A stretch of 62,860 nt of DNA, counting the filler, from Nitrospinae bacterium RIFCSPLOWO2_12_FULL_45_22 (GTDB taxonomy: Bacteria > 2-12-FULL-45-22): the NCBI GenBank assembly GCA_001803565.1. It is 3 parts of 3 records of this genome, joined end to end, with 100 filler letters (N's around TTAATTAATTAA, not from the genome) between each part and the next. Parts side by side here need not be neighbours in the genome. Positions count along the whole stretch, not along the records: positions 29,575 to 48,380 come from MHDQ01000266.1; 2 more parts are not named here. One strand, given 5' to 3'. Made by a program: the position numbers and the translations under genes. Below are positions 1 to 58,219 of this stretch, one piece after another. Position 1 is the first letter of the stretch; each line of letters starts with the position of its first letter. The notes under the pieces are model-generated. The model was not told the DNA's origin. It searched no databases and saw only the letters and a list, made by a program, of their open reading frames with translations.

Positions 1-387
1 GTTTTTAAAGGAAAAAAATAACTCTTTGTGCCTTAGTGCCTTTGTGGCTAATACAAGTTTTTATTGTATACTTTTTTATGAAACGCTCTACTGGTTCCAA
101 GATATGGTGGTATAAGGGAATAATATACTACAAAATGATTTTGCTATCACCCCTTATTCTTTCCCCGGGCCACCCTGGAATGGTAGATAACTGTGCCCGT
201 CTCCTCGAGGTACTGTTACGGACGGAGCAAAGCGTAGTCATAGAATCAGGACTATCCTGTATGGTATTGACATATTTTGCAATTATGATAATTTGTGCAT
301 CAAAAATAAACATCTCAGATTCTTCTCCCCAGTTGCAAGCACATATTGGCGAAAGCTCGGAATAAAAAGGTATTTTCAGAGGAACAG

Positions 388-3519: not shown

Positions 3520-3903
3520 CGGGACCTCCTCTTTGCCTTCAGATTGAACTTAATTGTTTTAGTTCAGAGCGCCCCTAGGGGGTGGAGCGGCGGTTCTCCC
3601 CCGGTCCTCTCCTAGTGTGCCATGGCCAAACCTCCGTATACAATTTTCTCAGACTATAGTCAATCACGTCATTAGTAAAACCGAGACCTCTTTCCCGTGA
3701 CCGGTGTGCAAATAACTTCTGTATCATGCCCCACGTGCTGCACGTATCACTCGTCTAGTTGGTTTCCTGAAGAGTAATATCTAAAGGGTGAAAGTATTAT
3801 TTTAAAGATGATAGATGATAAGATGAGATGATAAGGAATTGCATTTTTGTTTAAGAAAAATTAACACATCGACAAGGAAAATTGCAACCCTTTTTTCCGT
3901 AAA

Positions 3904-4051
3904 ATAGCGATTGATTTTCCAGAAATGCTAGACTCCTTTGTCATTCTGAGCGTTAGCGAAGAATCTATTGAGACCCTTCGCTTTGCTCAGGGTGACATTC
4001 ATAATAATGTGAGCCCTTTATTCGAGAGAGGTCATTGTTTTCAATCGCTAT
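3904..4051. repeat. Nested palindromic element: 11-bp inverted repeat shell enclosing a GTCATTCTGAGC...GCTCAGGGTGAC palindrome
   Basis: ATAGCGATTGA (3904-3914) / TCAATCGCTAT (4041-4051). Inner imperfect palindrome at 3939-3997. Confidence 0.7.
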
Positions 4052-4072
4052 CTTTCTGAACATTAGCCTGGC

Positions 4073-7025: not shown

Positions 7026-7124
7026 GGCCACAGATTCACGCAGATAGCCCCTGATCACCACAGAGATCACAGAGTGATAGGCAATTGCCAATAGCCCTTT
7101 ACCGATCCGCGTAAATATGTGGCT
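7026..7124. repeat. Intergenic CACAGA-type imperfect inverted repeat element
   Basis: GGCCACAGATTCACGCAGAT ... ATCCGCGTAAATATGTGGCT, with an internal CACAGAGATCACAGAG arm. Confidence 0.65.
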
Positions 7125-7145
7125 GAAGAGCTACTTTCTAACTAA

Positions 7146-7785: not shown

Positions 7786-7929
7786 GACGCGGATGAACGC
7801 AGGTTATACTGCCCAGGGAATACAGGAGTCAGAATTCAGAAGTCAATATGAATGGAACAATCAACTTCCCTTCTGAATTCTGACTCCTGTATCCTAGTTA
7901 TCTGTGCGAATCTGCGGCAATCTGTGTCC
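7786..7929. repeat. Nested element: 10-nt-periodic ATCTG shell containing a perfect 22-bp heptamer-type inverted repeat
   Basis: Inner TACAGGAGTCAGAATTCAGAAG (7821-7842) / CTTCTGAATTCTGACTCCTGTA (7870-7891). Outer GACGCGGATGAACGCAG / ATCTGTGCGAATCTGCGGCAATCTGTGTCC. Confidence 0.85.
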
Positions 7930-9115: not shown

Positions 9116-9191
9116 AACCCCATTAACAATGGTAGTGGGAGAGCTTGCTCTGCATCGGCCTTCATTAGAAATACTAAGGACAAGATAAAAC

Positions 9192-10406: not shown

Positions 10407-10427
10407 CTTTTTATCAAAAGCTTTATC

Positions 10428-10833
10428 CTTACAAGGACACTTATTTTTATAACGCTCGGACCTTAAGCCTTTTCTTTCTATGCGAGAGAAAGGCCAAATG
10501 GTTTTTCTTCTGAATCCAGCGCCCCAACTCTATTGTGTTTTCAATATCGAAAGTCCTAAGTGGTAACACGACTTTCAGTAAAATCCTAAGCTGCGACAGC
10601 GTAATAGATGGTGCTTTTTTCCCCCAACCTTATCTTCAAGTGCCAAAGGAAAAATGGGCCAGCATGCAAGTCAGAATATGGTGATTCCATCCTGGGTATT
10701 TTCTTACCTCATATTGTTTCTTTCTCGTAATCGGTCTTTGTAGCCAGCACAGTGTATTGGCTGGGATGGATACAAAATAGATCGTTCCTACACAACCCTC
10801 TATGGCATCAATAAATTCTGGACTATTGCCATA
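10428..10833 (-). pseudogene. IS701-family transposase remnant (internally deleted, frameshifted) with a probable terminal inverted repeat
   Basis: Minus strand reads YGNSPEF...YFVSIPANTLCWLQRP, then YEVRKYPGWNHHILTCMLAHF, then after frameshifts LWHLKIRLG/KKAPSITLSQLRILLKVVLP...KNHLAFLSHRKKR*. Ends in AAGTGTCCTTGTAAG. Confidence 0.75.
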
Positions 10834-10908
10834 AGTTGAACTATTATGCCAGAAACTGGCATTAAAGAATTTTACTATTCTCAAGAATAGAGTCAAAGTA
10901 TAAAAATT

Positions 10909-11172
10909 TTATAGGAAGGCTATAGGGATATAAGGGAACTCGCACGCCTTACAGGTAGTTGCCTGGGCTATTATTTGTAGTTTTGGCAGACTAAAGACAA
11001 TTACTGCGGCTACTGCCAGGTTGGTATACCGGATATAAGCCAGGTCTGCCCCGGCAATTAGAGAGAATTCTTGTTGGGGTCTCTCTATTTTTACTAATTC
11101 GGAAAGTTGTTCTTGTAAAACTTTTGCGGCTGCGGGTTCAAGGTTCCAGGTATGGAGCTTGTGATAATTCAC
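10909..11172 (-). pseudogene. nfi: Endonuclease V, truncated (N-terminal ~83 aa only)
   Basis: HTWNLEPAAAKVLQEQL, IAGADLAY, AVAAVIV, FPYIP followed shortly by a stop. The canonical continuation (GLLSFRE...DG.G..HPR) is missing. Confidence 0.85.
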
Positions 11173-14818: not shown

Positions 14819-17925
<3,107 letters not shown>

Positions 17926-17950
17926 TAACCCTTTCTTGAAGAAATTATTG

Positions 17951-18112: not shown

Positions 18113-18227
18113 CTATCTCCAAAGTCTTCTCCCCTATTTCCCTCCGGTGATTTATACTTTACAACCCTTAATGCTTTATGTTAGTATTTTAACCAGTAAA
18201 AAAATACGATTTCTATCAACCTTTCGT

Positions 18228-18355
18228 AATTAGTTGCCACTGCAAAATGGGGTGTCGGGTAAGTTCGGCGCTACATGCATTATGAAGACGATATTGCTAT
18301 AAAAATAGGTAGTGGCAAAGCTTGCTTTGCTGGTTTTTTTCAGTGGCAACTGATT
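18228..18355. mobile_element. MITE-like element with 20-bp terminal inverted repeats containing a GTAG-REP
   Basis: AATTAGTTGCCACTGCAAAA / TTTTTCAGTGGCAACTGATT (18/20 complementary). Internal GTAGTGGCAAAGCTTGCTTTGC at 18309-18330. Confidence 0.7.
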
Positions 18356-18415
18356 AAAGTTGTTTAAAACTGATAAAATTAGATCAATACAAAGGATTTT
18401 AGAGAGAGGGATATA

Positions 18416-20332: not shown

Positions 20333-21351
20333 AAAAAGAAAAAGATAGCCTATTATTCCCCCAGAGAGAAGAGGGCGAGCAGGAATTAAATTTTGAAGCG
20401 GGTATTAGGCCAAAAAGCCTGGATGATTATGTTGGCCAGGAGAAGCTCAAGGCCAATCTAAAGATTTTCATTGAGGCCGCTAAAGCCCGGTGTGAGCCCC
20501 TAGACCACGTCCTTTTCCATGGACCACCGGGCCTAGGAAAGACCACCTTAGCCCATATAATCTCTTATGAGATGGGGGTTAATATTAAGGCTACCTCTGG
20601 TCCCGTTATAGAGCGAGCGGGAGACTTAGCGGCTATCCTGACTAACTTACAAGACAAAGATGTGCTATTTATTGACGAGATCCATCGCCTGAATCATGTG
20701 GTCGAAGAGATTCTTTATCCTGCGATGGAAGATTTTAAGCTGGACCTCATTATTGGTCAGGGCCCCAGTGCCAGGATAATCAAATTAGAGTTACCGCGCT
20801 TTACCCTTATAGGGGCTACTACCCGGGCGGGTCTAATGACTTCCCCTCTCCGGGATCGTTTTGGTATGATTAGCCGATTAGAGTTTTATAATCACCCGGA
20901 GTTGCAGATAATTATTGAACGGTCTGCCCGGATTTTTGATATAGCGATAGATAGCCAGGGGTCCTGGGTGATAGCTTGCCGGTCTCGGGGGACTCCCCGG
21001 GTTGCTAACCGCTTATTACGCCGCGTGAGGGATTATGCCCAGGTAAAAGCCGACGGCTTTATCACCCAGCAGATAGCCCAGGAGGCTCTGGATCTACTGG
21101 AGGTTGACCATAATGGCTTGGACAAGATGGACCGGAAATTACTTTCCACTATCATAGAAAAATTTAATGGTGGCCCGGTGGGTATAGAGACTCTATCGGC
21201 TGCTATAAATGAAGAGAAGGATACCATTGAGGACGTCTATGAGCCTTATTTACTACAGGAAGGCTTCATAGATCGTACCCCCCGGGGTAGAGTAGTTACA
21301 CCTCTGGCTTATAAGCATTTAGGATACCAGGTCAAAGAATGCAAAGATTAA
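20329..21351 (+). CDS. ruvB: Holliday junction branch migration ATPase RuvB
   Basis: [44 protein letters not shown]. Confidence 0.99.
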
Positions 21352-21410
21352 AGCGAAAAGCGCAAAATTAAGGAATTATTCCTTAACTTTACACATTGCA
21401 TCTTTAGCTT
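21348..21410. repeat. Heptamer-type dispersed repeat, copy 1 (copy 2 at 58052-58121)
   Basis: TTAAAGCGAAAAGCGCAAAATTAAGGAATTATTCC matches 58052-58086 at 33/35 positions. Confidence 0.85.
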
Positions 21411-26034: not shown

Positions 26035-26093
26035 GAATTCAGGAGTCAGCATTGTGAAAACAGCTTTTATTCTGACTCCTAACTCCTGAATTC
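26035..26093. repeat. Heptamer-type inverted repeat (same family as 7821-7891)
   Basis: GAATTCAGGAGTCAG ... CTGACTCCTAACTCCTGAATTC. Confidence 0.8.
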
Positions 26094-29474: not shown

Positions 29475-29574
29475 NNNNNNNNNNNNNNNNNNNNNNNNNN
29501 NNNNNNNNNNNNNNNNNNTTAATTAATTAANNNNNNNNNNNNNNNNNNNNNNNNNNNNNNNNNNNNNNNNNNNN
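29475..29574. other. Artificial contig linker
   Basis: N44-TTAATTAATTAA-N44, giving stops in all six frames. Confidence 0.97.
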
Positions 29575-31066
29575 TGATAAATATCCTGGGAGGATTAGTA
29601 ATAGGGGTATTCTATAAAGGTATGGGGATAGCCGAAGCTGCCCAGACCTATACCCTCTTAACTATCGGTGATGGCCTGGTAGCCCAGATACCCGCTTTGA
29701 TCGTATCTACTGCGGCTGGTATAATAGTGACCCGGGCGGCTTCAGAGACTAACCTGGGTAATGAAATGGTAGGTCAATTAGTAGTACATCCCCGGGCTTT
29801 GTCGGTAGCGGCTGCTATCATCCTCTTCCTTGGCCTAATGCCCGGCTTACCTACCTTCCCTTTTTTACTCCTCGCGGGCTTTGTTGGTGTGGTTTCTTAT
29901 ACTATTATCCAGTCAGAAAAAAAGAGTTTTCTACAAGAAGAAACAGCCCGTGGGAAGAGGGGGGGAGCCGCTGGGGAAGAGAGACCGGAATCCCTCCTGG
30001 CTTTAGATTACCTGGGTTTAGAAGTGGGTTACGGGCTCATACCCTTAGTAGATATTGATCAGGATGGCGAACTACTAGAGCGGATAAAATCTTTGCGCCG
30101 GCAATATGCCTTAGAGATGGGCTTTATTATTCCCACTTTGCACCTCCGGGATAACCTTCNNNNNNNNNNNNNNNNNNNNTCCGGGATAACCTTCAGCTCA
30201 AACCGGGCGGTTATTCTATCCTCCTCAAAGGGATCGAGATAGCCAGAGGCGAACTAATGCTAAATCACTTCCTGGCCATGGACCCTGGTACCGTCGAAGA
30301 AAAGATCACTACCGGTATCCCTGCTAAAGAACCCGTTTTTGGTCTACCGGCCCTCTGGATACCTGAACGAGACCGGGAAAAAGCCCAGTTTGCTGGCTAT
30401 ACCATCGTGGATGCCGCCTCTATCATTGCTACCCATCTCTCGGAAATAATCAAGAATTTTGCCCACGAATTATTGGGTAGGCAAGAGACACAAAACCTGC
30501 TGGATAACCTGGCTCAACACTATCCTAAGGCCGTGGAAGAATTAGTGCCAAAAGTCCTGACTTTAGGGGGTGTGCAGAGGGTGTTGCAAAACCTGCTCCG
30601 GGAGGGAGTCTCTATAAGAGACCTGCTGAGTATTGTAGAAATACTGGCTGATTATGCCCCTCTTACCAAGGATCCAGAGGTCTTGACCGAGTATGTGCGG
30701 CAGAAGCTGGCGCGCACTATCTGCCGTCCGTATCAATCACCAGAAGGTATTCTTACCGTAATGTCCCCGGAGCCCAAGCTAGAGGAATGGATTTCTGAGG
30801 CTATCCAGCACACCGAGCAAGGAACCTATTTAGCCCTGGAGCCCAGATTAGCGCAAAAGATACTCCTGAAGACAAAAGAATCCTCAGAGAAATTTCAGAT
30901 ACAAGGCTTACAACCCATAATCCTCTGCTCTCCTATTATCAGGAGCCACCTCAAGAAGCTAACAGAACGATATCTCCCTCGGTTGGTAGTCTTGTCCCAT
31001 AATGAGATAGCAGAGAACATCCAGATTCAATCTCTGGGAGTTATAGGACTAGCCGATGAAAATTAA
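29575..31066 (+). CDS. flhA: Flagellar export protein FlhA (5'-truncated; internal assembly gap)
   Basis: YTLLTIGDGLVAQIPAL, LEVGYGLIPLVD, EPVFGLPALWI, VLQNLLREGVSIRDL. TCCGGGATAACCTTC is duplicated on both sides of the N gap, so collapsing it restores one frame. Confidence 0.96.
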
Positions 31067-33932: not shown

Positions 33933-34058
33933 TAAGTTATCAGCCATCAGTCCATAGCTTTAAGCAAATTCGGTGTCCGTGTCCATCGGGCACGCTTCAC
34001 GGTTAACAGAAAAACGGAGTTTCGCTGACCGCTGATTGCTGATAGCTGAATGCTGAAT
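33933..34058. repeat. GCTGAnn heptamer inverted repeat element with an internal CCGTGTCC/CACGG element
   Basis: TCAGCCATCAG left arm; five tandem GCTGAnn at 34024-34058. Sister copy at 44319-44462. Confidence 0.8.
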
Positions 34059-34096
34059 TTTGTAATTGTTTAGCCAATCAAAGTCTCCGATCTTAT

Positions 34097-34298
34097 TTAG
34101 CCACAGAGGCACAGAGGACACAGAGTGTAGGGACGTAGCTGCTATGTCCCTACTAACTTTCAGCCTCGGAAAGTGTTAGCAAAGGATGTAGCGTGAAAGC
34201 TTGCTTTCATAAATGCGAGCAAGCCTTTGGCCTTCAAGGCCAAAGGCTTGCATGTTACATCTCATTTTCTCTGTGCCCTCTGTGTCTCCGTGGCTAAA
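34097..34298. repeat. Multi-layer nested palindrome: 9-nt CACAGAG shell > GTAG-REPs > inserted micro-palindrome
   Basis: TTAGCCACAGAGGCACAGAGGACACAGAG / CTCTGTGCCCTCTGTGTCTCCGTGGCTAA. REP at 34127-34153, REP pair at 34188-34259, insert at 34225-34247. Confidence 0.85.
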
Positions 34299-34366
34299 CT
34301 GTTACCAATTTTAATGATTGACTCCTTAAGTTAAAAATGGTATAGGTAGAAGCCAAAAAAGGGGGG

Positions 34367-34651
34367 GTGATGGTCTTGGACAAAACCATAGATAAACCCC
34401 AGGGGTTATTACCGTGGTTAAACATAAAAGGAGTTTCTCAAGATGAAAAGTATTCCGGGGGGGAACATAAAAAGTTTGGTCAAGAAAAGAAAAAACCTCC
34501 CCCACAAAAAGAAAAAGTATCACTATCCCTAAGGGATGGTAAAGATAAGGAAGGAGAACCCGCGTATAGCAAAACCAGTACCGATAAGAAGGGCAAAGAG
34601 GATAAGTCGCCTGCCGGCACCCAGGGTAAACAAATAGACATAACTATTTAA
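34367..34651 (+). CDS. Small Lys-rich hypothetical protein ending GKQIDITI
   Basis: 94-aa ORF co-directional within the flagellar cluster; C-terminal GxxIDI motif. Confidence 0.65.
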   Translation: MMVLDKTIDKPQGLLPWLNIKGVSQDEKYSGGEHKKFGQEKKKPPPQKEKVSLSLRDGKDKEGEPAYSKTSTDKKGKEDKSPAGTQGKQIDITI

Positions 34652-36372: not shown

Positions 36373-36427
36373 CCCCCTATCGTATAAAAAATTTTAACCG
36401 CAAAGGACACAGAGGGAGGCGGGTGGT

Positions 36428-37607: not shown

Positions 37608-39254
37608 ATGAATCTTATAGCGCCATTCCTTAATCTTGAAGAGGGAATCTTAACGGGCGGTTCAAGAGGAGAGGGAGCGGATTTAAAATCTGTCCCTTCT
37701 TCTCTCACAGATAATTTCTCCAGTATCATAGCCGGGCTGTTGCCATCAATCCCTGGTATAGCTGCGGCCCCAGATATGGTTGCTGCTGTACCGGACATCA
37801 AATACCATTTGGTACCGGTTTATCAGGCTGAAGAAGGAGTAACTAAAGCTCCTGAGCGAGATACAGAAGGTACGGTTGAGGAAAACCATAGCGGGAAAAG
37901 ATATCCTATAGACGCAGGAAAATTTATCTTCCCTTATACTATAGGTAGGGCTGACTTTAGTTGTCCCGTAGGGCAAACTAAAGATTCTCCTACGCAAGGG
38001 GAGGAAATAGGACCGGGAAACTCCGTTGCCCGGCTTGGGGCAAGCCCCATTGATTTAGCAGAAGATATGGGAATGAAGGCAGAGAAAAACTGGAATATTA
38101 GCAGATTTACTGGGGAAGGCTTAGAAGATTTATCACCCCACCCAGCAATAGAACAAAGCATATCTTTACCGCACCAGGAAAAACCCGTTATTGATTTGCC
38201 AAAAAGCTTACTAGCGAGCTTAGAGATAGACCTTTGTACCGCCGATTTTAATGAAGCAATCTCGCCCGTGGCCGGAAATCCATTACCAGGACAGGGGATA
38301 AGCCCAGGTCTTACTGAATACCCTGAAGAAAGCCTATCAGGGGTAATAGGACGCAGATTTACGCAGATAAACACAGATAGCCTTACTGAATCTCTTGAAG
38401 AAGACCTATCAACCGACCTTCCAAAAACCCTGACCCACCAGACAAAGGGAGAGCAGATAAAAGAAGGGCTATCCTCAGCCGGATACGAAAAACCTGTTAT
38501 TGATCTATCGGAGAACCCAGCGTTTAAAAAGGGGATAAAACCTGGCGCTACCGGTCCCCCGGAAGAAAGCCCTCCAGACGCTCTTCCAAAAACCCTGACC
38601 CATCAGACAGAAAAAATATTGTCTTCAGGTAGATCGGATGATGGGGAGATTTATTATTTAAAAGACCTCTTGCCCGAGTATAAGTTGAAAACCAGAAAGG
38701 AAACTCCAGGGGAAGGACTATTGTCAGCCAATACCGCTAAACCGCTCCGGGAAACCCCTGAAGTATTAGTTAATAATCTTTTTACCAAAGACCATCCTAA
38801 CTCCATTGCCAATAGTTCGTATAACAACATACTGGAAGAAAAGGTCCTGGATCAGGTGGTGAAATATGCCCGGCTTAATCTTAAAGAGGGCATCTCAGAG
38901 GTAGAAATTCATCTCAAGCCAGAATTATTGGGCTCACTGAGGATAAAAGTTGCCGTGGAAGGGCAAGAGGTTAAAGCCAGCTTCTTTGCCGATACTCCTT
39001 TAGTCAAAGAAATAATCGAGACCCATCTCCCTAGCCTTAAGCAGGCCTTTCTTGCTCAGAATCTAGATATCCAGAAGTTTTCAGTGTCTGTAGGGTATCA
39101 TCCGGGCAGAGAAGATGTGGGCAACAATAACTTAAAAGACCTCCTTAAGGATAAAGAGGGTTATAAGAACAAAGAAATCAAGAAATCCCCGGAGCTTCAC
39201 GAGGTTAGGAAGCCGGAGTACCATAGCTTAAACCTAATAGATTGTTTCGTATAA
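37608..39254 (+). CDS. fliK: Hook-length control protein FliK
   Basis: C-terminal IHLKPELLGSLRIKV...VKEIIETHLPSLKQAFLAQNL; low-complexity N-terminus; precedes flgD. Confidence 0.85.
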   Translation: MNLIAPFLNLEEGILTGGSRGEGADLKSVPSSLTDNFSSIIAGLLPSIPGIAAAPDMVAAVPDIKYHLVPVYQAEEGVTKAPERDTEGTVEENHSGKRYPIDAGKFIFPYTIGRADFSCPVGQTKDSPTQGEEIGPGNSVARLGASPIDLAEDMGMKAEKNWNISRFTGEGLEDLSPHPAIEQSISLPHQEKPVIDLPKSLLASLEIDLCTADFNEAISPVAGNPLPGQGISPGLTEYPEESLSGVIGRRFTQINTDSLTESLEEDLSTDLPKTLTHQTKGEQIKEGLSSAGYEKPVIDLSENPAFKKGIKPGATGPPEESPPDALPKTLTHQTEKILSSGRSDDGEIYYLKDLLPEYKLKTRKETPGEGLLSANTAKPLRETPEVLVNNLFTKDHPNSIANSSYNNILEEKVLDQVVKYARLNLKEGISEVEIHLKPELLGSLRIKVAVEGQEVKASFFADTPLVKEIIETHLPSLKQAFLAQNLDIQKFSVSVGYHPGREDVGNNNLKDLLKDKEGYKNKEIKKSPELHEVRKPEYHSLNLIDCFV

Positions 39255-39934: not shown

Positions 39935-40024
39935 GGTAGCTGCAGGGTCGTTCCCTGCCCTGGTCTTAGTCGAGTAACATGATCAAGGTGTCTTACGATA
40001 GTAAGGAGAGGAGGTTGTTGAGCT

Positions 40025-41240: not shown

Positions 41241-41280
41241 ACAACAATAAACAATAAACAATAACTAATAACCAATAACC
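41241..41280. repeat. Tandem heptamer array (ACAATAA-like)
   Basis: ACAACAATAAACAATAAACAATAACTAATAACCAATAACC. Confidence 0.75.
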
Positions 41281-41287
41281 AGATAGT

Positions 41288-42382
41288 ATGATAGTTTCGA
41301 CCGACCCTATAAGCGGAAAAACTGTAACGATTCCAGGTACCAATGAACCGCGTGCCCTTAGAGGTCTGCTCTCACAATTGGTGATAGGTGAAGTGTTGGA
41401 GGGCAGGACTATAGAGCACCTGGGGGATCAGAGGATTCTGGTAAGCCTTAAAGATAAATGCGTAGTGGCTGAGACGCAGAGGGCTTTACTGCCCGGAGAG
41501 ACCTTCATGGTACAGGTAAAGCAACTTAGCCCAAAGATAGTGCTAAGTCTCCTATCAGAGCCTATTCCCCTGGGCAATAAATTAGTATCTCAGATAAAGA
41601 CCTTACTCACTTACCAGATAGCCCTGGGACGACTCATCGAGGATTTGCAGAAAAATATTGTATTAAACCAGCAATTAGAGTGGGATGGGAAAGAAAAGCT
41701 CCAGACTATCCTTTCTTCCCTGGTCTTTAACCAAAGTCAAGGAGACTATCTCAAGGCTTTTATCTCTGCCTCAGGACTGCTCTATGAGAACAAGATAATG
41801 AGATATTTATCCGGTGCCAGTAAAGAGTTGCCGCTGGACGACTTAAAAGGCCTATTGCTGCGGCTAGTTAGTGAGTTGAATGTGGGGTCATCTAACAACT
41901 CATCGCTGGCAAATCTGGTCTCTTCCGGGGTAAAAAATATTGAGCTTCAGCAATATCTCAATCTACTGAGTAAAGAGACCGGGGATTTTTATCTTCTCCA
42001 AATCCCGGTTGCGTTCTCTCAAACTATAGAGACTGTTCACCTTTATCTCTATGACCAGCGCGACAAGTCAGGACGAAAGGAGAAAAAAGATTGTTTTACT
42101 CTGGTTTTCTTACTAAGCCTGGAAGGTTTGGGGGAGGTAAAGATAGTGACCTTTATAGCGGATAAGAATATCCTTTGTCGAGTCACGGTAGCTCAGGAAA
42201 AGCAAGCGGAATTTATCCAGCGCCTCTTACCCCAACTAAAAGATCGGTTAGAAAACTTTGGGTATCAGGTAGAGGCCCTGAGCTGCTCGGCTGCTAAAGA
42301 AACCCCTGATCAGCTGCCATTACCTGGCTTAGACCTGGATGCTATTTTAGAAAGAATTAATTCCCTAAACTTATGGATATAG
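41288..42382 (+). CDS. Flagellar-associated protein with a FliK-like C-terminal domain
   Basis: SGLLYENK, DLKGLLL, LQIP, FLLSLEGLGEV; precedes the FlhB-cytoplasmic-domain gene. Confidence 0.65.
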   Translation: MIVSTDPISGKTVTIPGTNEPRALRGLLSQLVIGEVLEGRTIEHLGDQRILVSLKDKCVVAETQRALLPGETFMVQVKQLSPKIVLSLLSEPIPLGNKLVSQIKTLLTYQIALGRLIEDLQKNIVLNQQLEWDGKEKLQTILSSLVFNQSQGDYLKAFISASGLLYENKIMRYLSGASKELPLDDLKGLLLRLVSELNVGSSNNSSLANLVSSGVKNIELQQYLNLLSKETGDFYLLQIPVAFSQTIETVHLYLYDQRDKSGRKEKKDCFTLVFLLSLEGLGEVKIVTFIADKNILCRVTVAQEKQAEFIQRLLPQLKDRLENFGYQVEALSCSAAKETPDQLPLPGLDLDAILERINSLNLWI

Positions 42383-42392
42383 CACTTGTAAT

Positions 42393-42449
42393 CGTTCACC
42401 GCCGAGAGCGCAGAAAACACTTTTCTCTGTGTGCTCCGCGGTGAATGGC
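42393..42449. repeat. TTCACCGC...GCGGTGAA palindromic element
   Basis: GTTCACCGCCGAGAGCGCAGAAAA ... TTTTCTCTGTGTGCTCCGCGGTGAAT. Related arms at 45388-45412 and 51709-51727. Confidence 0.75.
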
Positions 42450-44318: not shown

Positions 44319-44462
44319 TAAGTATTCAGCCATCAGCAAGACTTACCGTAAGGTGTCAGGGGTAAGGCGTAAGGAGAAATTTTTCTCACCCCTTACCCTC
44401 TCACTCCTTACGCCTCACGATCATTTTAACTGAAAGCTGAAGGCTGATAGCTGAAGGCTTAC
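44319..44462. repeat. Nested heptamer elements: GCTGAnn shell containing a nGTAAGG/CCTTACn inverted array
   Basis: Inner CGTAAGG-TGTCAGG-GGTAAGG-CGTAAGG (44347-44374) / ...CCTTACG-CCTCACG (to 44419). Confidence 0.85.
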
Positions 44463-44484
44463 AAATAAAGGAGGCAGGAATAAA

Positions 44485-45273: not shown

Positions 45274-45412
45274 AACTGCAGACGCCGAGGCGCGGAGAAT
45301 AAAGTTGATGCCGTGTCCGTTAAGAGAGTTACCTTTTCTTCCCACGGACACGAATCACAGATACGGATCACGAAAGTATGTTTTCTCTGCGTCTCTGTGC
45401 CTCTGCGGTGAA
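45274..45412. repeat. Nested palindrome: 9-nt GCAGAG-type shell with an internal CCGTGTCCG/CACGGACACG element
   Basis: AACTGCAGACGCCGAGGCGCGGAGAA / TTCTCTGCGTCTCTGTGCCTCTGCGGTGAA. Confidence 0.75.
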
Positions 45413-48380: not shown

Positions 48381-48480
48381 NNNNNNNNNNNNNNNNNNNN
48401 NNNNNNNNNNNNNNNNNNNNNNNNTTAATTAATTAANNNNNNNNNNNNNNNNNNNNNNNNNNNNNNNNNNNNNNNNNNNN
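48381..48480. other. Artificial contig linker
   Basis: N44-TTAATTAATTAA-N44. Confidence 0.97.
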
Positions 48481-51400
48481 GCTTCCTTCTATATCATAGT
48501 TTTTAGAGGCATACCCTACATAGATATTGTAATGATCTATATCTGTCTCCTTATTGGCTTGCCATTGGATAAAAACGGTCTTACCTTCGACCGCCGCCTT
48601 TAAACCCGTAGGTGCACTGGGGGCCTGGATAGAAGGAGCAGTAGTGGTAAAACTCCATACTGGCCCCACTATGAAGGCCCCATGATTATCAAAGGCCACT
48701 ATCTGCCAGTAATAGGTAGCGGAATAATTTAGGGTACCAGGATTAAAACTGGTGGTGCCATGTTCGTGCTTTACTTCGGGAGGGTTGCTGGTGGTACCGA
48801 AATAGAGGTTATAGATAACCGTATCGCCAGCATCAGGATCACCGCTGGACCACCTCAGTACAGTATTAACAGCAATGCCTGTAGAGCCATGGGCGGGCTC
48901 AAGGATAGTGGGTATATCAGGGGGATGGTTATCATTAATCTGAGAGTATTTAATGATGGTATAATCAAAGATATTGTCCCCGGTCCGACTACTAGAACCA
49001 GCCACATATATGTTACCATTGTTATCTAATGCTAGGCCATTAGGTATATCAGAGCCTCCATCATATCTGACCACCCATAGCCTATTCCCTTCGGTATCAA
49101 ACTTGATTGTTATAAAATCAGAACTGGAATTTGTGGACACATATACGTCACCACTTANNNNNNNNNNNNNNNTATATCTAAGGCCATGGAACAATTTGAG
49201 CCGCTATAATCTGTGAAATCGCCTGTTCCTCGCCTTTTCCATATCTGGTTTCCATCTTTGTCATATTTACTAATATAGTTACAAGCATTACTTAAGACAT
49301 AGACGTTATCACTGCTATCTATCTTCAGTGACTTACCAGCAAATTCCGTTTCCCATACCTGTTTTCCATCCTTATCATACTTGGCGGTTCCAGTGGGGCT
49401 AGTGACGAAGAGGTTGCCACTGCTATCCGATACTAAACCAAACCCTACGGAATAAAACCCGCTCCCCTCGCCCCTATTAATTTTCCAGAGTTGGTTACCA
49501 TCTGGATCATATTTTATAATAATTGAGCCCAAATACCCCACTGTCGGATACGTGCCTATATAGACATTACCCATGCTGTCCGCCGCCAATGCAATGGAAT
49601 CAATTTTTACAAGATCAGCATAGCCTAAAAGATAGGTCTTTATCCAGAGCTGGTTTCCGTTGGGGTCATGTTTGCTAGTAAGCATATATAAGCAACTCTC
49701 CCCCATCCCACCACTGCACCTACCAGTACTTATTCCGGTTACATAGACATTGCCGCTATTATCTATGGCGATCTTATAAGGCCGGTCAGCAAGATTATAG
49801 TAATAACCATATAATTCATATCCTCCGTCGTCTATAGCTACCCAGAGCTGGTTTCCATCGGGATCATATTTGATAGTAGTAAAATCATAGGAGGAAGTAT
49901 CTACGTTATAGCGAGTCCCGGTGACATAGATATTGTCCCTATTATCTATAACCACGGCTTGGACCTTATCGCCCTTTGTGCCTGAATCATACCTGGCTAC
50001 CCAGACTTGTTTACCCTGAGGGTCATACTTGATAGTAGCGGAATAAGAGGCAGTATCTTGGCTGCTGCTATAGCCAGTTACATATATATTACCCTGGCTA
50101 TCTAAAGCCAGATCAGTGATATAGTCATTACCTCCCGCAGGATTATCATAGGTAACCTGCCATATTTTATTCCCATCAGTATTGTATTTGATGGTGGCAT
50201 AGTCATCATTCACGGATCCCCCCATATAGACATTACCATTGCTATCAACCGCCAACTTAGTAGGAGATTTATTAGCATTCGGGATACTGTCTTCCCAGAG
50301 CATTTTGCCATCGGGGGAATATTTGATAGTTATTATGTTATAGCCTGAATCACTACTGTTAGCTATATATCCACTGACATATAGATTCCCAGCGCTATCT
50401 ACGGCCAGAGCAGTGGGCTGGGCCTTACCTTCGTAGCGATTTACCCAGAGTTCATTGCCATTAGGGTCATACTTGATAATATTGATATGGTTTCCAGGAT
50501 CATAACGAGCACCACCTGCTATGTAGACATTACCGCCTTTATCTACCGCCAGCGCCGTAGCCATGCAGACATGACCGCACTCGCTATAAGTGGGTTTATA
50601 GCGGGCTACCCAGAGCTGATTCCCTTCAGGGTCATATTTGATGGTACCATATCCTGCTGGGATTGGGCCATACATACTATAGCCAGTGATATAGATATTA
50701 TTGTTGGTATCTATGACGAGGCTACTTGGATAATCACCAATCCCCCCATCGTAGGTGGCTATCCATATCTGTCTCCCATCGGAATCATACTTAATGGTGC
50801 AATAATCCTCATAATATCCGTTGTTATCAGGAACCCATCCACTCACATAAATATTGTCATTGCTATCTACTGCGATATCACGGGCTTCCCCATAAATATA
50901 CCCGCCTACTCTTTGCTTACTGTATCTGCTTATCCATTGCTGGCTCCCATGAGAATCATATTTGATAGTAATAATCTCAGTAGAGTTACCAGTAGCACCT
51001 GTCACAGCCATATAGATATTGCCTTTACTATCCGCAGTTAGGAAATTGCGCTCCCGAGGAACGACTTCAGCATATCTGGCCACCCAAAGTTGATTACCAT
51101 TAGGATCGTAATTAATAATGTCATACCCTTGGGAGCTGGCTCCGGTAACATAAACATTTCCACTAATATCTATAGCCATGTCCATAGCAGAGTCACTACT
51201 TCCTGAATCATACCTGGTAACCCAGAGTCGATTACCTTGAGAGTCATATTTGATAGTGGCATAGTCATTATCACTGGTTCCTGTGACATAGAGATTTCCG
51301 CTATCATCTATGGTCATGGCAACAATAGTATCAGACCCACCTAAGGGACTATCATAACTTGCTACCCATTCTTCCTTCACCACCTCATGGGCCATAACCA

Positions 51401-52880: not shown

Positions 52881-52997
52881 ACTATTGCCTCCTATGGGAA
52901 AATCTGGTTGACAGAAATGCTATTTATATGCTAAAAAAATGCCTGAATTCATAAGGGTGTGACTATTCTTTATTATAAAGCCTATGTAATGTAATTT

Positions 52998-53049
52998 GTA
53001 GTGGTCGAGCTTGCTCGACATTCCTTGGCAGAGCAAGCTTTGCCACTAG
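52998..53049. repeat. REPIN-like inverted pair of GTAG-REPs
   Basis: GTAGTGGTCGAGCTTGCTCGAC-ATTCCTTG-GCAGAGCAAGCTTTGCCACTAG. Confidence 0.85.
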
Positions 53050-53128
53050 GTGAGGGGGGATTTGATATCAACTTATTTATATCGTTTACTATAGTTCTAT
53101 TACTTATTACTTTGATGGAGGATACTGG

Positions 53129-53419
53129 ATGGATATGAGCGATCCCTTTAAAGGACTGGTTACCCGGAAGATGACCCTGGAGGAACTGGCCCGGGCTATC
53201 CGCCAGGATATCGCTGCAGAGCTAGATGCCATAAACCTTTATCAAGCCCATATTGATGCTACAGACAATGAGCCGGCCAAAAAAATTTTAGCCCATGTCC
53301 GGGACGATGAGAAAGAGCATGTAGCCGAGTTTATGGAGCTATTAAGGATATTGGACCCAGGCCAGGCCGAAAAGCTAGACCTGGCTCCGGCCGAAATTAA
53401 AAAGGCCCTCTCTGAATAG
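53129..53419 (+). CDS. Ferritin-like protein, encapsulated-ferritin (EncFtn/Flp) type
   Basis: RAIRQDIAAELDAINLY...HVRDDEKEHVAEFMELLRILDP two-helix half-ferritin; RBS GGAGG. Confidence 0.88.
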   Translation: MDMSDPFKGLVTRKMTLEELARAIRQDIAAELDAINLYQAHIDATDNEPAKKILAHVRDDEKEHVAEFMELLRILDPGQAEKLDLAPAEIKKALSE

Positions 53420-53467
53420 TACACAATAGCGCCAGTTTAGCTAAATAAAGTGTCCAAAAAGTCTTTT

Positions 53468-53574
53468 GTAGTGGTCGAGCCTTCGGCCTCGAGAGCTTGC
53501 CCTGAGCCTCCCGAAGGGGCCTCAGCCCGAAGGCTTGCTCGACATCTTTACGCAGAGCAAGCCCTGCCACTACA
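53468..53574. repeat. Same REPIN as 52998-53049, carrying nested insertions
   Basis: GTAGTGGTCGAGC[CTTCGGCC...GCCCGAAGGC]TTGCTCGAC...GCAGAGCAAGCCCTGCCACTACA. Confidence 0.85.
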
Positions 53575-53750
53575 GATTCCTCTCGACCATTAGGTTATTT
53601 ATTTCAGTATTAACCAAATTTACTTATTGGCAACACTAACACCTCTTCCTTTCTCCCCCAGCCCGATAAAATGCGACCCTGGAATCTGTTTGACTTAGTT
53701 AACAGGCCCTGTTAGATTAATTTTAGGGTAAATTTATAGGGTAGATTTAT

Positions 53751-55430: not shown

Positions 55431-55507
55431 AAGGTGCAAGGTTCAACGTTCAATGTGCTAAGTCCTAAGTTCGACATTGCACCTTGAACTTTGTACCTTA
55501 TACCTTT
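55431..55507. repeat. Heptamer-periodic inverted repeat between convergent genes (possible terminator)
   Basis: AAGGTGC-AAGGTTC-AACGTTC-AATGT ... ACATT-GCACCTT-GAACTTT-GTACCTT-ATACCTT. Confidence 0.8.
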
Positions 55508-57926: not shown

Positions 57927-57951
57927 AACGCAGGCTAAAGCCTGCGACTAC
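57927..57951 (-). repeat. Single GTAG-REP
   Basis: Minus strand GTAGTCGCAGGCTTTAGCCTGCGTT. Confidence 0.75.
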
Positions 57952-58051
57952 CACAAAACCGCATTAAAAAAATGAAAATTCCTATACAATCAAGGTAATA
58001 CAATCGCGCATCACCTCTGCACGCAGAGGCAACCGCGATAAAATCTAAAGC

Positions 58052-58121
58052 TTAAAGCGAAAAATGCAAAATTAAGGAATTATTCCCTGGTTTCACACTT
58101 TGCGCTCTACACTTTTAGCCT
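58052..58121. repeat. Heptamer-type dispersed repeat, copy 2 (within a degenerate CGCAGAG shell)
   Basis: 33/35 identity to 21348-21382. Confidence 0.85.
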
Positions 58122-58219
58122 CCTTTTGTATCCTATATCAGCGTTCTTTGCGCCCTCATCTGTAATCTGAATCTGGATTGGAAACTAATTAGTGCCACGA
58201 TTTCATTTATGGATGGGCA

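Follow-up and report, generated by a model that had tools for sequence, protein, structure and literature searches.

The gap between fliA and a sigma-54 activator gene in the genome of Nitrospinae bacterium RIFCSPLOWO2_12_FULL_45_22 raises the question how several kinds of small repeats came to lie inside one another within 203 bp (34096-34298). We analysed this element together with the surrounding window, i.e., the whole stretch of 62,860 nucleotides, in which N...TTAATTAATTAA...N spacers (with N runs inside 29475-29574 and 48381-48480) link three contigs. A first-pass annotation of the same DNA had sorted its intergenic elements into (a) inverted arms of short CACAGAG-type units, here called shells, (b) inverted arrays with a 7-nt period, (c) hairpins of the repetitive extragenic palindrome (REP) type starting with GTAG and (d) shells resembling miniature inverted-repeat transposable elements (MITEs), and had proposed that these elements use each other's loops as landing sites. 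We read the focal element as a stack of three kinds of small non-coding hairpin repeats which arose by successive insertion into the tips of earlier hairpins, with a probability of roughly 0.6. It is a composite of known kinds, namely a REP doublet folding as one hairpin (REPIN) and a micro-insert similar to the small dispersed repeats (SDRs), and of a foldback shell which resembles the intervening sequences (IVSs) of 23S rRNA, holds no open reading frame (ORF) and for which a literature search, with most subscription journals outside its scope, returned no description.

The focal stack and its fold

The outermost layer is a shell whose two arms (30 nt each, 90% complementary) stand 143 nt apart; each arm consists of TTTAGCCA followed by three tandem CACAGAGG-type units with a period of 8-9. 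The loop of 143 nt contains no listed ORF and is wholly explained by nested hairpins, with a GTAG-tagged hairpin and a REPIN as the second layer and a micro-palindrome within one REP unit as the third:

34096-34125, plus strand: left arm of the shell (inverted-repeat call; tandem period 8, 2.8 copies; aligns with arms of Bacteroides finegoldii and Nostocales)
34127-34153, plus strand: GTAG-tagged hairpin GTAGGGAC...GTCCCTAC in the shell loop (sequence; paired in the DNA and RNA folds)
34156-34174, no strand: small 6-bp hairpin ACTTTC...GAAAGT in the shell loop (DNA and RNA folds)
34185-34261, no strand: REPIN of two inverted GTAG-REP units, the left one (34188-34209, plus strand) intact and the right one (34215-34258, minus strand) interrupted (REP pattern match at 34188; alignment; folds)
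34224-34246, no strand: 23-nt micro-palindrome CCTTTGGCC-TTCAA-GGCCAAAGG, which splits the loop of the right REP unit between GCAAG and CTTGC
34269-34298, minus strand: right arm of the shell (inverted-repeat call; arm alignment)

That a CACAGAG shell encloses a REP pair, and this in turn a micro-palindrome, had been described in the first-pass annotation and was borne out by both folds, in which all layers were recovered. The fold of the single-stranded DNA reached -62.8 kcal/mol (z -11.5), a value attained by none of 200 shuffles, and the RNA fold -116.4 (z -13.1). A perfect palindrome with 16-nt arms (34219-34234 / 34236-34251, 100% complementary) spans the micro-palindrome. No bacterial Rfam family matched the focal gap or the foreign shells described below; only generic hairpin models were hit below threshold, namely precursors of eukaryotic microRNAs and small nucleolar RNAs and one bacterial small RNA. 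A promoter and terminator scan returned no terminator-like site, and promoter-like sites at chance level.

Outside the shell, a further 21-nt inverted pair (81%; 34056-34076 / 34291-34311) lengthens the stem outward. The end motif TTTAGCCA is present twice on the left side, 27 nt apart (34069-34076 / 34096-34103), and the second copy, left of the shell, may be the remnant of another arm. Directly upstream of the shell, beginning 7 nt 3' of the fliA stop codon, lies one of the heptamer arrays:

33933-34056, no strand: heptamer-periodic inverted array of ATCAGCC / GCTGATA-type units with a GTGTCCG hairpin in its loop (period 7 at 34031-34056 by Tandem Repeats Finder (TRF); gap fold)

A GCTGA-type heptamer run akin to this array also occurs in Anabaena cylindrica (L044). 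Between the focal element and the sigma-54 activator gene an ORF of 94 aa (34367-34651, K/E/G-rich) was called, which has no Pfam match and may not be a real gene.

REP units and probable insertion into hairpin loops

The REP family GTAGYGG-NN-RAGCTTGCTY comprises eight units at five loci, which are distributed over all three contigs, are all intergenic and form three doublets (34185-34261, 52998-53049 and 53468-53573) and two singlets (9132 and 18309). Five of the six uninterrupted units start with GTAG and one with CTAG (53031); the two interrupted units start with GTAG and GTAA. Six matches to the unit GTAGYGGNNRAGCTTGCTY, each with at most one mismatch, compare with 0.78 expected at up to three mismatches. 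As a negative control served 42 unrelated loci (677 kb) from a scan of genome contigs for FlgE (10-kb flanks), in which no close relative appeared and the best match was 47% identical (metagenome-assembled genomes (MAGs) of Actinomycetota); the REP pattern occurs four times in the window and not at all in these loci. The enrichment is confined to the full pattern: GAGCAAGC at one mismatch was counted 46 times vs. 46.3 expected. Apart from the focal REPIN, the REP units and GTAG-tagged hairpins are as follows:

9132-9153, plus strand: REP singlet GTAGTGGGAGAGCTTGCTCTGC (REP pattern match; blastn)
18227-18356, no strand: inverted-repeat shell with 21-nt arms (90%) enclosing the REP singlet 18309-18330 (gap fold z -5.1)
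39936-39965, plus strand: GTAG-tagged hairpin with a sequence unlike the main REP family, 2 nt after the flgD stop codon (gap fold)
52998-53049, no strand: intact REPIN with units 52998-53016 (plus) and 53031-53049 (minus) (inverted-repeat call; REP pattern; alignment)
53468-53573, no strand: REPIN with a composite palindromic insert of 54 nt (53480-53533), placed in the hairpin loop of the left unit (alignment; gap fold z -3.6)
57927-57951, minus strand: GTAG-tagged hairpin GTAGTCGCAGGC...GCCTGCG (sequence; gap fold)

Among the sites which the first pass had placed in family (c), those at 34127, 39936 and 57927 are GTAG-tagged hairpins which differ in sequence from the main REP family.

Comparison of the copies bears directly on how the innermost layer arose. 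REPIN 53468-53573 aligns end to end with REPIN 52998-53049 save for 54 extra bases in the hairpin loop of its left unit. This insert and the 23-nt micro-palindrome of the focal REPIN occupy the same position (AAG^CTTGC) and share the ends CCTTYGG...CCRAAGG; at the same loop, six of the eight REP units are empty and only these two are filled. The 54-nt insert looks like a micro-palindrome of the focal type with further hairpins in its own loop. With no interruption in the remaining six REP units, insertion requires the fewest assumptions, and the use of loops as landing sites, as proposed in the first pass, has direct support from this comparison. Shells behave alike, the type being empty at 42395-42445 and filled at the focal site.

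Accordingly layered, the stack could have formed as follows. An ORF-less foldback shell, with arms of tandem CACAGAGG-type units ending in TTTAGCCA, would have provided the first loop, the GTAG hairpin and the REPIN would have come to lie within it, and a 23-nt micro-palindrome would then have landed in the loop of one REP unit. Following the GTAG-REP model, the REPIN would have been moved by a HUH transposase of the REP-associated tyrosine transposase (RAYT) type acting on single-stranded hairpins, and the shells and micro-palindromes in trans by some activity which prefers hairpin tips. On the mRNA, the stack would represent a very stable 3' structure after fliA, and we conjecture that, between fliA and the sigma-54 activator gene, it might stabilise the transcript or be processed by a double-strand RNase.

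Recurrence of families (a), (b) and (c), as claimed in the first pass, was confirmed by the enrichment of the REP pattern and of CACAGAG, by the control loci and by comparison of the gaps among themselves. CACAGAG was counted 12 times vs. 4.44 +/- 1.78 in shuffles, none of 100 of which reached 12; by strand-collapsed 7-mer count ten copies are intergenic and one is coding. The double-unit arm pattern was found eight times in the window and once in the control loci, the TCAG heptamer pair twice and not at all, respectively. All-against-all blastn of the intergenic gaps gave ten inter-locus high-scoring segment pairs vs. 0-5 (mean about 1.5) in 20 shuffles, and independently retrieved the REP family, the pair 21348/58052, the TCAGGAG pair 7820/26035 and the TTCACCGC end common to 42393 and 51712. 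Of the 32 gaps that measure 40 nt or more, ten have folds at z <= -2.6 vs. mononucleotide shuffles. The 22 curated elements are found in 19 of these gaps and make up 1842 of 6823 intergenic bases (about 27%); twelve of them begin -4 to +30 nt from the gap start, just past the end of the upstream gene (gene strands were read from the ORF listing). About a quarter of the intergenic DNA is therefore repeat-derived hairpin, which matters for operon prediction and for MAG assembly.

Related arms in other phyla and the competing explanations

Arms and elements were searched by blastn against 72,556 plasmid records. The 38-nt left arm retrieved 21 of them (nine from Nostocales, seven from B. finegoldii, two from Gemmatirosa and three others), and the aligned arms share TT-(A/C)-CCACAGAGG-CACAGAG-R-ACACAGAG. 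All three B. finegoldii loci that were inspected are shells between housekeeping genes (22-41-nt arms, 103-120-nt loops), two of them with an inner palindrome, and in Gemmatirosa (L064) a perfect CGCAGAGG shell encloses a CACAGAGG shell. The heptamer palindrome 7820-7892 matches 13 Nostocales plasmid records. For the REPIN region 52881-53750 no plasmid match was obtained at E <= 1; REPIN and micro-palindromes at E <= 10 gave scattered matches in unrelated taxa, mostly coding, and the micro-palindrome inserts gave none in Nostocales, from which many of the plasmids derive. Since REPIN and micro-palindromes yield only scattered matches, the signal of families (a) and (b) does not merely reflect the search method; judged by their sequences, both families are not private to the host genome and are shared with Nostocales, B. 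finegoldii and Gemmatirosa.

Arms of the same build flank genes for four-helix-bundle (S23p) proteins, a fold which includes Avd, the accessory protein of diversity-generating retroelements. In plasmid pNPUN01 of Nostoc punctiforme such a gene lies exactly between inverted TCAGGAG/TCAGAAT arrays, and a gene-less palindrome of these units adjoins it. A tblastn search with the encoded protein retrieved 31 plasmid records, from which 14 further loci were fetched; at 12 of the 15 loci examined the gene is flanked by inverted short-unit arrays. Three loci lack inverted arms: L054 has no arrays, L055 direct heptamer arrays and L057 tandem heptamers on both sides which are not inverted. The AAGGTTC units around the gene in Riemerella (L059) are those of the window element at 55431, and like the TCAGGAG type they are thus the same units in the window and around four-helix-bundle genes elsewhere; further flanking units are GACAGAGGACGGA in Azospirillum and GGGCAGGA in Gemmatirosa. 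Four-helix-bundle genes had been named in the first pass among the candidate genes between intact arms; they are flanked in this way in other genomes, but they are not a proven mobiliser. At three of the loci (L052, L053 and L055, on plasmids of Picosynechococcus, Anabaena sp. 90 and Pseudanabaena) the gene lies within a CRISPR-Cas operon, the placements being between cas10 and cmr3, beside cas4, and between cas6 and cas4.

In Nostoc N6 (pNPM1, L061 440-625) a four-helix-bundle gene, itself flanked by heptamers, is interrupted by a 182-nt insert, a heptamer-armed shell with three inner hairpins, which is absent from the homologue on pNPUN02 of N. punctiforme. From a comparison of the two copies, this pair is taken as a filled and an empty site of family (b).

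Each layer of the stack has counterparts among described repeats. Elhai et al. are said to have described in 2008 the SDRs and the heptamer arrays of short tandemly repeated repetitive (STRR) sequences of Nostocales, an SDR being a 21-27-nt module placed precisely in a conserved short target. STRR hosts are heterocystous cyanobacteria, and the classical units are STRR1-3. The window resembles these systems in its heptamer-periodic intergenic arrays, with arms matching Nostocales plasmids, and perhaps also, to judge by two inserts of 23 and 54 nt, in palindromic modules of about 23 nt sitting precisely in a short palindromic target. It differs in that its host is not a cyanobacterium, that its micro-palindromes have no Nostocales match and that the STRR1-3 motifs and TAACTGA heptamers have no tandem occurrence in it. 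Eukaryotic Foldback (FB) transposons possess long inverted arms of short tandem subrepeats around a middle which is empty or gene-bearing; the likeness is one of architecture only (arms plus variable middle), in a different domain and at a different size scale, and there is no evidence of kinship. SDR5 inserts precisely into the HIP1 motif, between nucleotides 3 and 4 (PMC4390886), and heptamer repeats are common to Beggiatoaceae, Cyanobacteria and Bacteroidetes (PMC4679880).

GTAG REPs, REPINs and the RAYT model are established (PMC3116915, PMC3733652): a REP is an imperfect palindrome of 20-40 bp with GTAG at one end, the REPIN is the replicative unit (PMC3116915), and in A. variabilis, T. 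roseum and H. neapolitanus REP dimers have been described as parts of longer palindromes (PMC3733652, section 7). The window units share the GTAG head, the short imperfect palindrome, the extragenic position and the occurrence as singlets and as inverted spaced doublets folding as one hairpin. They differ in that the window encodes no RAYT, that two units hold palindromes in their own loops, and that the host, Tectomicrobia/Nitrospinae-like by LepA, stands outside the phyla listed with GTAG REPs in PMC3733652. Like the MITEs of the Nezha, ERIC and NEMIS/Correia types, the shells are non-coding, intergenic, bounded by inverted ends and foldable in transcripts (PMC3733652); unlike them, they show no target-site duplication, have periodic arms in place of unique terminal inverted repeats and are accompanied by no transposase in the window, and no parent insertion sequence is known.

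The shell finds its closest description in the Coxiella IVS, which according to PMC4990558 contains an S23p ORF, tandem GACAGAT heptamers and a 28-bp terminal stem and is excised by RNase III; transposition is named there as one old hypothesis for its origin. Both have terminal inverted repeats which form a long stem of short tandem units, and insertion at a hairpin tip is a further likeness. The focal shell differs in having no ORF and in lying between protein genes, not in helix 25 or 45; ORF-bearing forms of such arms were seen only in other genomes. We read the focal shell as a gene-less IVS-like element because it has the same build as the arms flanking four-helix-bundle genes. Tentatively, the idea may be extended: the periodic-arm shells could belong, as members without a gene, to a superfamily of IVS-like foldback elements which crosses phyla, bears in its full-length form an S23p/Avd-like gene between arms of this kind and spreads via exposed hairpin tips, although we hold this to be rather doubtful. 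If true, its targets would include REP loops, other shells, operon spacers and helix 45 of 23S rRNA, the origin of rRNA intervening sequences would be explained, and so would the near-identical 7-9-nt arm units in Nostocales, Bacteroidota, Gemmatimonadota and the Tectomicrobia/Nitrospinae-like lineage. The literature search found neither the CACAGAGG-type shell family, its presence in four phyla and dispersed four-helix-bundle cassettes, nor a link of gene-less shells or heptamer palindromes to four-helix-bundle arms.

The window's own 23S rRNA (14819-17926) measures 3108 nt vs. a model of 2925 positions. At helix 45, the classical IVS site, it bears an insert of about 75 nt (about 16112-16186) which forms an extended hairpin (RNA z -4.6), shows a 7-nt spacing of the CCCTTA/TAAGG kind and differs in sequence from the focal shell. 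Smaller expansions are located near model positions 282, 312 and 583.

Growth of the palindromes in place, by slippage of tandem units and hairpin-templated strand switching and without any movement, would agree with arms that are tandem arrays of varying unit number and are closer to each other within one copy than to those of other copies, and with the Coxiella IVS stem, in which the number of heptamers differs among strains (PMC4990558). It appears unlikely in view of near-identical arms and end motifs at unrelated loci and in four phyla, of two REP units interrupted at one and the same loop position by discrete inserts of unrelated sequence, and of the discrete 182-nt insert in one of the two Nostoc homologues. 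The twelve elements starting just behind the upstream gene, the high stability of the hairpins and the filling of gaps inside a co-directional flagellar cluster could also be explained if the elements were regulatory structures of the host, selected where they stand between cistrons as 3' mRNA stabilisers, terminators or RNase III sites, and if their repetition reflected a common function. As the sole explanation this is improbable, for there is neither a T-run terminator nor an Rfam family match, and inserts within inserts, the broken Nostoc gene and the cross-phylum arms are left unexplained; as an added role it is compatible with the account by successive insertion. That the periodic arms serve as site arrays to which a sequence-specific protein binds, either a post-transcriptional regulator or the four-helix-bundle protein, we consider very unlikely: the units are short and repeated at fixed period, the CAATAAC x5.3 array stops 6 nt before the start codon at 41288, and MacGregor (2015) proposes such a regulator role for TAACTGA-type heptamers (PMC4679880), but unit sequences vary widely within the one genome (CACAGAGG, TCAGGAG, GCTGATA, AAGGTTC, GTAAGGC) and neither inverted layout nor nesting is needed for binding.

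Hardly credible is an artefact in which cyanobacterial sequence was mis-assembled or mis-binned into a non-cyanobacterial MAG, and cyanobacterial contamination was rejected. The three N-joined contigs do contain internal N runs and the arms do match Nostocales, but the matches extend over 25-45 nt and are not cyanobacterial genes, and the repeats sit between flagellar genes on one contig. From the flagellar cluster it follows that the host is not a cyanobacterium, and one lineage-specific REP family on all three contigs fits a single genome. LepA of contig 1 has copies of 99-100% identity in metagenome protein sets, where its relatives span 83-100%; among named relatives, the nearest come from a MAG of 'Candidatus Tectomicrobia' (77%) and one of 'Nitrospinae' (76%), and Thermodesulfovibrionales and Nitrospirota rank next at ~70%.

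Several observations weigh against successive insertion. There are only two micro-palindrome inserts, and copy numbers in so small a window are low; none of the three junction pairs that were read bears a target-site duplication, and filled and empty copies alone cannot tell insertion from precise deletion. Among the ORFs of the 62.9-kb window there is no RAYT, four-helix-bundle gene or other candidate mobiliser, and we know of no transposase activity of the four-helix-bundle protein. Being located in coding sequence, the Nostoc N6 insertion does not strengthen the case for a loop preference. Against the conjectured role on the mRNA, no terminator-like T-run follows the focal hairpin. Because single arm matches are weak by blastn (E-values 0.01-5), the cross-phylum case rests on taxonomic clustering and shared architecture. 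Four of ten independently recognisable elements lie in shell loops (p = 0.106 each), which is suggestive of more nesting than chance, but the binomial P of 0.016, or 0.062 when the two focal-loop elements count once, is borderline and the window too small for a powerful test against random placement. On balance, nesting and loop insertion as described in the first pass are supported, but its mobilisers and an enrichment of nesting over chance were not shown.

On the reading of successive insertion, the locus supplies exact junctions for inserts in hairpin loops, and it connects two repeat types found in an uncultured lineage outside the cyanobacteria with arms in Nostocales, Bacteroides and Gemmatirosa and with the arms of four-helix-bundle genes. 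It thereby touches the long-standing questions of how very small repeats move, what moves them and where the intervening sequences of 23S rRNA come from. If all of these belong together, one mechanism could cover dispersed heptamer palindromes, gene-less shells and rRNA intervening sequences, and could be studied in tractable strains of Nostoc or Anabaena.

Further elements and gene context of the window

Loops of family (a) shells range from 5 nt (42395-42445) to the 143 nt of the focal shell. The remaining members and related elements are:

23-52, minus strand: single arm of the CACAAAGG type with GCTAA as its end; it opens contig 1, and any partner would be beyond the contig
7027-7125, no strand: shell beginning 14 nt behind the stop codon of lepA, with CACAGAT/CGCAGAT-type arms and a loop in which a GGCAATTGCC palindrome and two CACAGAG units are found
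7786-7925, no strand: shell with CGCGGAT/CGCAGGT ... ATCTGTGCG/ATCTGCGGC arms (35 nt, 86%), enclosing the family (b) palindrome 7820-7892 of TCAGGAG/TCAGAAT units (gap fold z -5.5)
42395-42445, no strand: empty shell with 23-nt arms TTCACCGC...CGCAGAAAA and a 5-nt loop (inverted-repeat call; arm alignment)
45274-45412, no strand: shell with right arm TTCTCTGCGTCTCTGTGCCTCTGCGGTGAA, enclosing the hairpin CCGTGTCCGT...ACGGACACG (sequence; arm alignment; gap fold z -3.9)
58005-58125, no strand: small CGCAGAGG-type palindrome (58005-58041) beside a heptamer palindrome of the 21348 family (58052-58125) (sequence; gap fold; blastn)

For family (b), TRF reported periods of 7 and 14 at 7823, 34031, 41245, 44347 and 44430, and the following elements were listed in addition to those given above:

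21348-21410, no strand: heptamer-periodic palindrome of AAAGCGA/AAAGCGC... units, which overlaps the stop codon of ruvB and is 94% identical to 58056-58086 over 31 nt
26035-26093, no strand: palindrome of TCAGGAG units outside any shell (inverted-repeat call; blastn)
44319-44470, no strand: heptamer shell TCAGCCA/TCAGCAA ... GCTGATA/GCTGAAG, enclosing a second heptamer palindrome of GTAAGG units, 44347-44416 (TRF periods 7, 14 and 15; gap fold z -3.6)
55431-55505, no strand: heptamer-periodic palindrome of AAGGTGC/AAGGTTC units occupying its entire gap (gap fold z -5.5)

Altogether, 23 of the 28 sites listed in the first-pass annotation fit its description. Those at 36397 and 51709, given there as inverted arms, are a single unit or a solo end without partner arm, and the period of family (a), stated as 9/10 nt, was measured as 8-9 nt. 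The site at 41241 had been called an inverted array; CAATAAC x5.3 is a direct one. This array (41245-41281) ends 6 nt before the ATG of a FliK-like ORF (41288), a placement which recalls the heptamer repeats just upstream of start codons in Beggiatoaceae (PMC4679880). Both inverted repeats of family (d) are real (3895-4060 and 18227-18356), but as they are unrelated to each other they do not constitute a family and were rejected as such: they are two unrelated singletons.

G+C amounts to 45% in the whole window and to 41% over the 6823 intergenic bases. Contig 1 encodes lepA, lepB, an rRNA operon and ruvCAB. The flagellar cluster of contig 2 comprises flhA, flhF, flhG, fliA, the focal gap, the sigma-54 activator, flgB, flgC, fliE, fliK, flgD and flgE, and continues with flgF, G, A, H, I and J; lon, clpX, clpP and tig are located on contig 3. 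Within the contigs, two short runs of N (30160-30179 and 49158-49172) split flhA (29622-30242 / 30257-31066) and an SBBP-repeat gene, respectively. An 87-aa ORF (10909-11172), which adjoins the 502-nt gap 10407-10908, aligns with endonuclease V over no more than the first ~77 of 216 positions and probably represents a truncated gene. The FliK hook-length-control domain was found in two ORFs (37608-39254 and 41288-42382), one on each side of flgD-flgE. On contig 3, a small gene for an encapsulin-cargo ferritin-like protein (EncB family, 53129-53419) is flanked by the two REPINs of the same family, 52998-53049 and 53468-53573.

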